A DNA stretch of 14,184 bases, taken from IMG/VR virus record IMGVR_UViG_2541047119_000008, one strand, 5' to 3'. This stretch comes from a virus (lineage: Duplodnaviria; Heunggongvirae; Uroviricota; Caudoviricetes). The position numbers were made by a program. Position 1 is the first letter of the stretch. Every line of letters starts with the position of its first letter. Positions 6,001 through 9,000 of the stretch are shown one piece after another.

Positions 6001-9000
6001 ATGACTGGGGGCGTCCCGAAAAATATCTGGTGTATAAAAGCCGTCCCGTATCCGGACGGCAGATGGAAACCAAAGAAGTGGATGCAGAGCGAATGCTGCA
6101 TCTTAAATTTGTTCGCCGTCTGCACCAGATGCGCGGGACGTCTTTGTTGTCCGGTGTGCTGATCCGCCTCAGTGCCCTGAAAGAGTATGAGGATTCTGAG
6201 CTGACTGCAGCAAGGATCGCCGCTGCTCTGGGGATGTACATCCGGAAAGGCGATGGGCAGAGCTATGAACCGGATGGTAATGGCAGCAAGGATAAGGAAC
6301 GCGAGCTTACCATTCAGCCAGGCATTATTTACGACGATCTGAAACCCGGCGAAGAAATCGGAATGGTGAAGTCGGATCGCCCCAATCCTAACCTTGAAAC
6401 TTTTCGTAATGGTCAGTTGCGTGCCGTGGCGGCGGGCAGTCGTCTGAATTTTTTCCAGTACAGCGCGCAACTATAACGGCACTTACAGCGCCCAGCGTCA
6501 GGAGCTGGTTGAATCCACTGATGGCTACCTGATCCTGCAGGACTGGTTTATTGGTGCCGTCACCCGCCCGATGTATCGTGCCTGGCTGAAACAGGCTGTG
6601 GCATCCGGTGTTATCAGGCTACCCCGCGATCTTGACCGTTCTTCACTGTATACCGCGGTGTATTCCGGACCGGTGATGCCGTGGATTGACCCTGTTAAGG
6701 AGGCTGAGGCCTGGAAAATTCAGATTCGTGGTGGAGCAGCGACAGAATCAGACTGGGTACGTGCAGGTGGTCGTAATCCGGATGATGTCAAACGTCGGCG
6801 CAAGGCCGAAATTGATGAAAACCGCAAGCTGGATCTGGTATTTGATACCGATCCGGCCAGTGATAAAGGAGGCAGCAGTGCCGCAACGAAACGACAGGAG
6901 CCGCAGCACACCGACGACCAGTCCGAAGAATAATTCCTGGTTCAGGATGCAGGCTGGTCACCAGAGTGACGCGGATATTTATATTTATGACGAGATTGGT
7001 TTCTGGGGTGTTACAGCGAAGCAGTTTATCAGTGATCTGAATGCACTGGGCGATATCACCCACATTAATCTCAATATCAATTCACCGGGTGGCGATGTCT
7101 TTGAAGGCATCGCCATTTTTAATGCACTGAAAACACATGGTGCGTCCATTACCGTTTATGTCGACGGTGTGGCGGCGTCAATGGCGTCGGTCATTGCGAT
7201 GGTGGGAAAACCGGTCATTATGCCGGAAAACTCCTTCATGATGATTCATAAACCATTTGGCTTTACGGGCGGTGATGCGGAGGACATGCGCACCTATGCC
7301 GACCTGCTCGATAAAGTTGAGGCGGTTCTGTTACCCGTTTATGCACAGAAAACCGGGAAAACCACCGATGAAATTGCTGCCATGCTGGCGGATGAGACCT
7401 GGATGTCCGGTGCCGAATGTCTGGCACATGGATTTGCTGATCAGGTGACGCCAGCCGTTAAGGCAATGGCATGTATTCAGTCAAAACGTACAGAGGAATT
7501 TAAAAAGATGCCGGAATCCATTCGAAACATGATTACTCCGCCACGCAACAGTGCTCCACGCGTACAGGATGATGGACCTGCAGCCTCCCGGACGCCAGTG
7601 CAGGCAGCAGCACCTGTGGTGGATGAAAACAGTATCCGTGCGCAGGTACTGGCAGAGCAAAAAGCGCGTGTAAACGGTATTAATGATCTGTTTGCCATGT
7701 TTGGCGGGCGTTATCAGACGCTGCAGGCTCAGTGTCTTGCCGATCCTGAATGTTCGCTGGAGCAGGCCCGCGAAAAGCTGTTGAACGAGATGGGGCGCGA
7801 GTCCACGCCATCTAATAAAAATACCCCGGCTCATATTTATGCCGGAAACGGTAATTTTGTGGGGGATGGGATCCGCCAGGCGCTGATGGCGCGTGCCGGA
7901 TTTGAAAAAACCGAACGTGATAATGTCTACAACGGGATGACCCTGCGTGAATATGCCCGTATGTCACTGACTGAACGGGGTATTGGGGTTTCCAGTTATA
8001 ACCCGATGCAGATGGTCGGTGCGGCGTTCACACACAGTACGTCTGACTTCGGTAATATTCTGCTGGATGTTGCGAACAAAGCCATTCTGCAGGGCTGGGA
8101 AGATGCCCCTGAAACCTATGAACAGTGGACGCGGAAAGGTCAGTTGTCTGATTTTAAAATTGCCCATCGTGTGGGTATGGGGGGCTTCAGTGCTCTGCGT
8201 CAGGTGCGTGAAGGGGCGGAATATAAATACGTCACCACCGGAGATAAACAGGCCACTATTGCACTGGCGACCTATGGCGAGCTGTTCAGTATCACCCGTC
8301 AGGCCATTATCAATGATGATCTGAATATGCTGACCGATGTCCCGATGAAACTGGGCCGTGCGGCGAAATCCACTATTGCCGATCTGGTTTATGCCATTCT
8401 GACGTCTAACCCGAAAATCTCCACAGATAATGTAAGTCTGTTCGATAAAGCGAAACATGCAAACGTACTGGAGAGCGCTGCAATGGACGTGGCATCGCTG
8501 GATAAAGCCCGCCAGTTGATGCGCGTTCAGAAAGAGGGGGAGCGTCATCTGAATATTCGTCCTGCGTTCGTACTGGTACCGACGGCGATGGAGTCTGTTG
8601 CTAACCAGGTCATTCGCTCCTCAAGTGTCAAGGGGGCTGACATTAACGCCGGTATTATTAACCCGGTGAAAGATTTTGCGACCGTTATTGCAGAGCCTCG
8701 TCTTGATGATAACAGCCAGACCACCTTCTACCTGGCTGCGTCAAAAGGCTCCGATACGATTGAAGTGGCTTATCTCAACGGTGTGGATACGCCATATATT
8801 GATCAGATGGAGGGCTTCAGTGTGGATGGCGTGACAACGAAAGTGCGTATTGACGCCGGTGTCGCGCCAGTTGATCACCGCGGTCTGGTGAAATGTACGG
8901 CGTAAACGTCGCAGACAACAACTCTGATGGCCCGTAAGGGCTTTTTTTGTACCTGAAATCAGCCCCTGAACGGGGCTGTGCGGAGACAGTTATGGCAAAG

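Follow-up and report, generated by a model that had tools for sequence, protein, structure and literature searches.

Stem-loops on the 5′ side of ompA-type messages stabilize messenger RNA (mRNA), and the intercistronic hairpins of puf, of malEFG (repetitive extragenic palindromic, REP) and of pap give different stabilities to the segments of a transcript. In the late operons of phage L and other P22-like phages, a predicted intrinsic terminator ends the procapsid gene module; its roles “are not known” (Casjens and colleagues, PMC8022706), the proposals for such intra-operon terminators being partial termination or the stopping of non-antiterminated transcription (PMC8022706). In phage T7 the leaky terminator T-phi lies directly after the major capsid gene 10, and read counts drop downstream of it (PMC6938266); weak terminators are, moreover, known to balance phage gene expression (PMC9163698). 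Here we describe a related arrangement in a 14,184-nucleotide (nt) stretch of DNA from a tailed virus (Caudoviricetes; IMG/VR record IMGVR_UViG_2541047119_000008), the whole of which we call the window. In it, two consecutive hairpins, H1 and H2, separate the gene for a fused prohead protease–major capsid protein from the gene for a capsid cement protein. The element is a well-supported intercistronic hairpin pair of ordinary type, widespread in enterobacterial prophages, in which two selection regimes adjoin: H1 is frozen in sequence and kept weak, and H2 is free in sequence, with its shape and position fixed. We favor, tentatively and at a probability of roughly 0.45, its interpretation as a two-part intercistronic RNA element of a Q-dependent late operon, wherein H1 would act as a weak terminator and 3′ guard, and H2 would protect or insulate the downstream message.

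Both hairpins are held by the 86-nt spacer between the protease–capsid stop and the cement ATG, one among the few true intergenic gaps of the window. H1 begins 23 nt downstream of that stop, on the transcribed strand, and the parts follow one another thus:

8929..8942, plus strand: hairpin H1, GGCCC-GTAA-GGGCT, in which G8929–C8933 pairs with G8938–T8942 by four G-C pairs and one G-U pair, with the tetraloop GTAA.
8942..8948, plus strand: U-tract of seven T (T7 in the DNA, U7 in the RNA), its first T being the last base of the H1 stem.
8949..8959, plus strand: unpaired A/U-rich linker GTACCTGAAAT, 11 nt, conserved in sequence.
8960..8978, plus strand: hairpin H2, CAGCCCC-TGAAC-GGGGCTG, with a perfect stem of 7 base pairs (bp), 8960–8966 with 8972–8978.
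8982..8985, plus strand: Shine-Dalgarno (SD) sequence GGAG of the cement gene, 3 nt (TGC) past H2 and 6 nt ahead of the ATG.
8992–8994, plus strand: ATG start codon of the cement gene, separated from H2 by 13 nt.

The first half of this element has been recognized before. The same H1 with its T7, at the same place, is already annotated as a rho-independent terminator in the records of phages mEp460 (NC_019716, 6334–6353), mEp213, mEp043 and Ayreon, these annotations being predictions that cover H1 only. The mEp460 record has such terminators after the capsid gene (that is, H1), the major tail gene and later tail genes, and the Ayreon and mEp213 records do likewise. Neither H2 nor the linker carries an annotation in the four phage records or in the RefSeq Escherichia coli genomes listed; Rfam 15 gives no relevant match in 8700–9200 at E-values up to 10 and no match at gathering score across the whole window, and none of the full texts searched contains the motif sequence. 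H1 was hence known as a predicted terminator, and H2 is new to annotation. The setting is like that of the P22-like late operons in its single promoter, Q-type antiterminator and terminator inside the operon; unlike it, the latter have a different head gene family and no described second, covarying hairpin adjacent to the ribosome-binding site (RBS) (PMC8022706). T-phi differs in acting on T7 RNA polymerase, in being a single long hairpin and in working without an antiterminator. With ompA, puf, malEFG and pap the locus shares a stable hairpin just upstream of the RBS, another hairpin that closes the 3′ side of the upstream, more abundant segment, and an A/U-rich single-stranded stretch between the two, reminiscent of an RNase E site although it matches the RNase E preference only loosely.

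In the window, the folding energy is −8.8 kcal/mol for H1 (z −2.0), −13.9 kcal/mol for H2 (z −3.4, with 1 of 200 shuffles folding equally well) and −27.8 kcal/mol for the whole 71 nt (z −2.95); in the centroid fold the linker is unpaired between both hairpins. An earlier note on this DNA had pointed out a GC stem with T7 at 8929–8948 after the capsid stop and a perfect 7-bp stem-loop at 8960–8978, 13 nt upstream of the next ATG, and had suggested that their folding energies be estimated; both structures are present as it described them, with the energies just given. From the window alone neither hairpin is beyond chance: a loose terminator scan picks out H1 as one of 33 sites, with 13.2 expected, and perfect 7-bp GC-rich hairpins number four against 1.8 ± 1.4 in Markov simulations. 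Rather, H1 and H2 rise above chance because of their intergenic placement and their conservation in relatives. Elsewhere in the window, a further perfect 7-bp GC-rich hairpin lies inside the portal gene at 6040–6060 (GCCGTCC..GGACGGC, its minus-strand version being followed by TTTT), and another at 9710–9726 (CCCGGCA-GGT-TGCCGGG) in the coding sequence of the gene starting at 9595.

The relatives were gathered in two ways. A search through the downstream cement protein, over phage records and one genome per bacterial species (the genome search using an alignment of six proteins), gave 22 sequences, and a DNA pattern comprising H1, U7 and part of the linker gave 65 unique variants in viral contigs; a scan of viral contigs with the window's own cement protein returned near-identical loci only, of no use for covariation. 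Altogether, 77 distinct sequences were aligned with a covariance model. The layout they share is GCCC-N4-GGGC, T7, the linker, a second hairpin, 0–3 nt, GGAG, 5–10 nt and a start codon. It is common to phages and prophages of about 16 Enterobacterales genera, which include Escherichia, Salmonella, Klebsiella, Enterobacter, Citrobacter, Pluralibacter, Pseudocitrobacter and Yokenella, and further Ewingella, Rahnella, Pantoea, Edwardsiella, Sodalis, Proteus and Providencia.

The sequence of H2 changes freely among these relatives and its pairing is kept. Its stems include CAGCCCC/GGGGCTG, CCGGCAC/GTGCCGG, CCGGCTT/GAGCCGG, CGCCCC/GGGGCG, CTGGCTC/GAGCCAG and GGCCTCTC/GAGAGGCC. In an unfitted MAFFT alignment of the 22 protein-found sequences, compensatory changes on both sides are seen at five of the seven pairs, and the covariation score of the helix is reached by none of 500 shuffles. 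In the covariance-model alignment of the 77, 93% of the H2 cells are paired and 68 hold a double change, against 18.4 ± 3.4 in shuffles; when the partner arm is slid by one column as a control, pairing is at most 62% and the score at most 0.076, versus 0.267 for the true helix. RNAalifold recovers the same helix independently, and folding each sequence without any alignment yields a 5–10-bp hairpin between the linker and the SD in 77 of 77, comprising 66 distinct sequences with a mean of −13.6 kcal/mol. Since H2 passes the covariation test, it can be taken as a functional RNA structure: the pairing is conserved with compensatory changes in related phages, where the earlier note had proposed to look for it, and H2 is a real conserved RNA structure under selection for shape. 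The roles that the note offered for it, RNA stability, processing or translation initiation, are all candidates.

These results bear directly on the notion that the hairpins are chance or neutral palindromes, a protein-binding site at the DNA level or a terminator for the opposite strand, a view that could draw on H2 being statistically ordinary within the window alone and on the minus strand also folding, at −23.6 kcal/mol. We regard it as very improbable. The compensatory changes keep the pairing as the sequence shifts, the opposite of what a sequence-specific DNA site would display, and the H2 loops of the relatives are often GNRA or UUCG tetraloops, which point to plus-strand RNA and not to a DNA site. 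As for an opposite-strand terminator, no consistent minus-strand T-run follows either hairpin, and the mEp460 and Ayreon annotations have no minus-strand gene at the spacer. Covariation thus largely excludes the chance, DNA-site and opposite-strand readings. One candidate interaction between the hairpins was also rejected: an alternative helix that joins the 3′ arm of H1 to the 5′ arm of H2, seen in the minimum-free-energy (MFE) fold of Kp4865-4, is possible only with an H2 of the CAGCCC type and not with the CCGG type, and is therefore not conserved.

Along with its shape, the position of H2 is fixed. The gap from H2 to GGAG is 0–3 nt in 77 of 77 relatives, and GGAG itself is invariant in one alignment of relatives and nearly so in another. 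The fixed placement of H2 just ahead of GGAG argues for a role aimed at the downstream cistron, and by analogy with the known systems a protective or insulating 5′ hairpin is the favored role; a cut within GAAAU at 8955–8959, or a transcript beginning there, would be compatible with the ompA-type geometry. H2 does not have the U-run of an intrinsic terminator: its 3′ flank is TGCGGAG in the window and AATGGAG, AAGGAG or TATGGAG in relatives, a T-run occurring only in Citrobacter phage Chris1 (locus L009, 1309–1382) and Hafnia phage yong2 (locus L010, 1280–1358). These two phages likewise have two hairpins between the protease–capsid and cement genes, the first with T7, but there each hairpin has its T-run, making them tandem terminators, and the second lies farther from the SD, whereas in the clade of the window H2 is without a T-run and abuts GGAG.

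The Chris1 and yong2 tandem may represent the ancestral state of the H1/H2 pair, and from this arises a different, unlikely, explanation for H2: a second terminator that has decayed, its U-tract lost as the RBS moved close, and that now serves only as a second, stronger 3′ barrier for the capsid message, without a part to play for the downstream gene. That the second hairpin of Chris1 and yong2 is followed by TTTTCC or TTTTCA is consistent with such a history, as are the many relatives in which H2 (C-AGCCC-..-GGGCT-G) repeats the H1 arms AGCCC/GGGCT in a duplication-like manner, and the distant relatives with a single GC hairpin lacking a T-run after the capsid gene. However, a pure 3′ barrier would have no need of the 0–3 nt spacing that is kept throughout the 77, and the linker is conserved in sequence.

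The closeness of H2 to the invariant GGAG also raises the alternative that H2 and the linker control translation of the cement gene, either with U7 and the linker forming a standby or S1 site and H2 being bypassed, or with the YCU of the linker pairing the GG of the SD, thereby closing a stem that encloses H2 and damping initiation. Indeed, the MFE fold of the window pairs the linker CUG with a CGG overlapping the SD, for which the predicted probability of being unpaired is 0.24. However, the 77 relatives do not agree on a predicted partner for the SD, the linker filling that role in a minority only, and the mean unpaired probability is 0.42; moreover, both candidate partners are nearly invariant, which makes covariation uninformative on this pairing. 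We hold translational control to be improbable.

H1, U7 and the linker present the converse pattern. Among the 22 protein-found relatives the H1 core GCCC/GGGC is invariant in all save for one G-U, with only the loop and an optional fifth pair varying, and T7 directly follows GGGC in 21, the remaining one, Sodalis, having GGGT and then T7. Identity among relatives is 90% for H1 plus U7 and 76% (mean pairwise) for the linker, compared with 56% over the opening 90 nt of the cement gene; the family consensus of the linker is AT-R-Y-CT-R-AA-W-Y. A GC-rich stem-loop after a stop codon with a U-run directly 3′ of it is the form of an intrinsic terminator, though the H1 stem lies at the short, weak end of the terminator range. 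It has 4–5 bp in 77 of 77 distinct relatives and is never longer, with a mean of −8.0 kcal/mol versus −16.2 for the terminator after the major tail gene (see below), and this uniform minimal size makes it look deliberately leaky. We hence predict H1 plus U7 to be an intrinsic terminator held at low strength, the conservation pattern indicating selection both on the sequence of H1, U7 and the linker and on weakness. In more distant relatives (Chris1, yong2, Pasteurellaceae, Microbulbifer and Pseudomonas), different stems occupy the place of H1, and T5–7 still comes after them; the Pasteurellaceae are without H2, and in Betaproteobacteria a GC hairpin without a T-run stands in place of H1 after the capsid gene. 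That a hairpin persists behind the capsid gene, whether or not a T-run follows it, points to a function at the RNA end beyond termination.

Two candidates around H1 and the linker did not hold. The 28-nt pattern GCCC-N4-GGGC-T7-AT..CT.AA also matches an unrelated viral contig (locus L164, 10909–10960), where it is flanked by a gene of unknown function and, downstream, by one for a holin; H2 is absent there, and we reject it as a family member in favor of a generic terminator. This match indicates that the H1/linker pattern by itself is not specific to the two-hairpin element. An upstream open reading frame (ORF), or an N-terminal extension of the cement protein, from TTG at 8947 was rejected since its frame is broken by indels in relatives.

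Published Salmonella RNA sequencing (RNA-seq) data offer a view of the spacer in vivo, as the Gifsy-2 prophage carries the element (locus L004, 973–1896 and onward). In strain 14028s, two sheets of Table S1 of PMC5013294 give the capsid gene STM14_1173 expression values of 22–23 in three of four cases (16–23 overall) and the cement gene STM14_1174 values of 5–6, and the same table places a Rockhopper transcript stop at the end of STM14_1173. According to that study, STM14_1174–8, from the cement gene through the major tail gene, form the block that responds to overexpression of HilA, and the corresponding genes STM1034–STM1038 correlate with the invasion genes of Salmonella pathogenicity island 1 (SPI-1) (PMC5013294). 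The responsive block is bounded by the hairpin spacer and by the homologue of the tail terminator. These data support the spacer being a transcript boundary in vivo. The HilA response is, in its own right, an unexpected host link to prophage structural genes.

The same data bring up an internal transcription start, or a stable 5′ end, inside the spacer. The promoter would lie in or near the T7 and linker, or would make use of an activator site within the last part of the capsid gene, whereby H2 would be the 5′ hairpin of a cement-to-major-tail transcript and H1 its insulator. It is in keeping with this that the HilA-responsive block begins exactly at the spacer and ends at the major tail gene (PMC5013294), that SL1344_0973 and SL1344_0974 occur together in another transcriptome list, with SL1344_0972 absent from the main text of that paper, and that a start a few nt upstream of H2 would give the geometry of a 5′ stabilizing hairpin. 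We nevertheless consider such a start distinctly doubtful. Neither the window's spacer nor that of Gifsy-2 contains a sigma-70 promoter (requiring −35 and −10 elements at 16–18 nt spacing and A2 and T6 of the −10); TATACC, the hexamer most like a −10, ends in C in every case, and its counterpart in the window, TGTACC, is without the key A. Inspection by eye revealed no convincing match to a sigma-E or sigma-54 promoter in the spacer. Further, the authors obtained no chromatin immunoprecipitation (ChIP) signal for HilA (PMC5013294), and the Gifsy-2 lytic genes are silent, at no more than 10 transcripts per million (TPM), in 22 other conditions.

A bolder proposal would see H1/U7, the AUACCUGAAAU linker and H2 as a dedicated module through which the late operon is divided into messages under separate control, by means of a specific endonuclease cut or of an internal start regulated by the host. 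We think this a poor bet, and mention it for its consequences. If it were true, the cement-to-major-tail block could be expressed or stabilized on its own, as hinted by the HilA-responsive STM1034–8, and host regulators could reach the structural genes of prophages in lysogens.

In the interpretation that we favor, a weak terminator and 3′ guard is followed by a protective or insulating hairpin. The Q-like antiterminator encoded by mEp460 indicates that the capsid and cement genes belong to a Q-dependent late operon. There, H1 with its U7 would stop or thin the polymerases lacking antitermination; upon read-through, H1 would be left as a 3′ hairpin that guards the protease–capsid message from 3′ exonucleases. 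H2 would form the protected 5′ side of the cement message, possibly following an endonuclease cut in the A/U-rich linker, and might keep the cement RBS clear of upstream pairing. Jointly, the two hairpins could set the ratio of capsid message to downstream message. Cement or decoration proteins are normally needed in capsid-like amounts; with the cement protein probably required in such numbers, a strong block ahead of its gene would be odd, and the minimal H1 fits this.

Several points weigh against this interpretation. The termination efficiency, the linker cleavage and any stabilizing effect are inferred. From lambda biology, Q-antiterminated late transcription is expected to pass terminators mostly, and the Q-modified polymerase should largely ignore H1; nor is attenuation between the capsid and cement genes obviously useful, both proteins being probably needed in similar amounts. 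RNase E reportedly has a loose preference for RN|WUU, as put forward by Chao et al. in 2017, which the linker matches in some relatives only, for example with GAAUU or AAAUU. The alignment of the 77 sequences is one fitted to its covariance model, and most of these sequences came from the DNA pattern, in which H1, U7 and some of the linker are set beforehand, such that the invariance of those parts rests on the 22 protein-found sequences. Lastly, the Salmonella values are low, were measured in lysogens that had not been induced, and may include reads shared with Gifsy-1. The earlier note had suggested that H1 attenuates transcription after the capsid gene, and part of this stands: H1 has the form of a terminator, is annotated as such, and a hairpin with a T-run is kept in deeper relatives. 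As simple attenuation, the proposal is too simple, given the expected Q read-through, the need for cement protein and the leaky stem.

In terms of its distribution, the element occurs once per phage genome, and is also present in Gifsy, Fels and Stx-type prophages of pathogens. About one third of the complete E. coli genomes (1,825 of 5,426) hold the 151 bases at 8880–9030 of the window with an identity of at least 90%. The spacer with its flanks reaches up to six copies per E. coli genome, and four copies lie on plasmids. The general picture is unchanged by the element, but it offers a handle on the purpose of terminators within antiterminated late operons, a point left open for the P22-like phages (PMC8022706). 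A copy of it in E. coli O157:H7 Sakai, in Sp15/VT1-Sakai (AP000400, 23151–23239, between H0019 and H0018), is within the reach of public data sets named in PMC7547250: differential RNA-seq (dRNA-seq; GEO GSE143631) with the Term-seq set deposited alongside, and cross-linking to Hfq (PRJNA197291) and to RNase E (PRJNA310426). H2 and the linker merit annotation, and the hairpin pair would be usable as a compact intercistronic part.

The source phage is a lambda-like E. coli prophage, the identity of the window to mEp460, cdtI, Ayreon and other lambdoid phages being about 99%. The genes that flank the spacer, and the other terminator of the late operon, are:

6947..8905, plus strand: upstream gene, a ClpP-like prohead protease/scaffold/major capsid fusion of 652 amino acids (aa) (Pfam, PHROG 133).
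8903–8905, plus strand: stop codon TAA of the protease–capsid gene.
8992..9315, plus strand: downstream gene, a capsid cement or head decoration protein of 107 aa (Pfam Phage_cement_2, PF09956; PHROG 122).
11346..11369, plus strand: second late-operon terminator, a single hairpin downstream of the major tail gene with the sequence GCCCCGG-TTAT-CCGGGGC plus T6 and an energy of −16.2 kcal/mol; the mEp460 and Ayreon records annotate it as a terminator.

In the fusion protein, Pfam places the CLP_protease domain at aa 23–168 and Phage_capsid_4 at aa 355–649, and E. coli genomes label the gene as [quoted passage not shown]. The cement protein matches PF09956 with an E-value of 9e-21, PHROG 122 being described as “head decoration”; the 3′ end of its gene overlaps the next gene, which starts at 9308. 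At the tail terminator the next SD directly adjoins the hairpin, with no second hairpin between.

Across the whole window, sigma-70-like promoter matches are depleted (3 versus 11.3 ± 3.4 expected) and terminator-like sites are enriched in a loose scan (33 versus 13.2 ± 3.4 expected), which together fit a single long late operon with a distant promoter. The portal gene (about 5424–6933) is broken into ORFs at 5352..6476 and 6571..6933 by a frameshift at 6435–6476, where the window reads CTGAATTTTTTCC versus CTGAGTTTTTCC in Ayreon and mEp460, with one additional base in the T-run. Either the prophage is defective or the additional base is an error in sequencing the homopolymer; the same variant is present in one other of the fetched loci.

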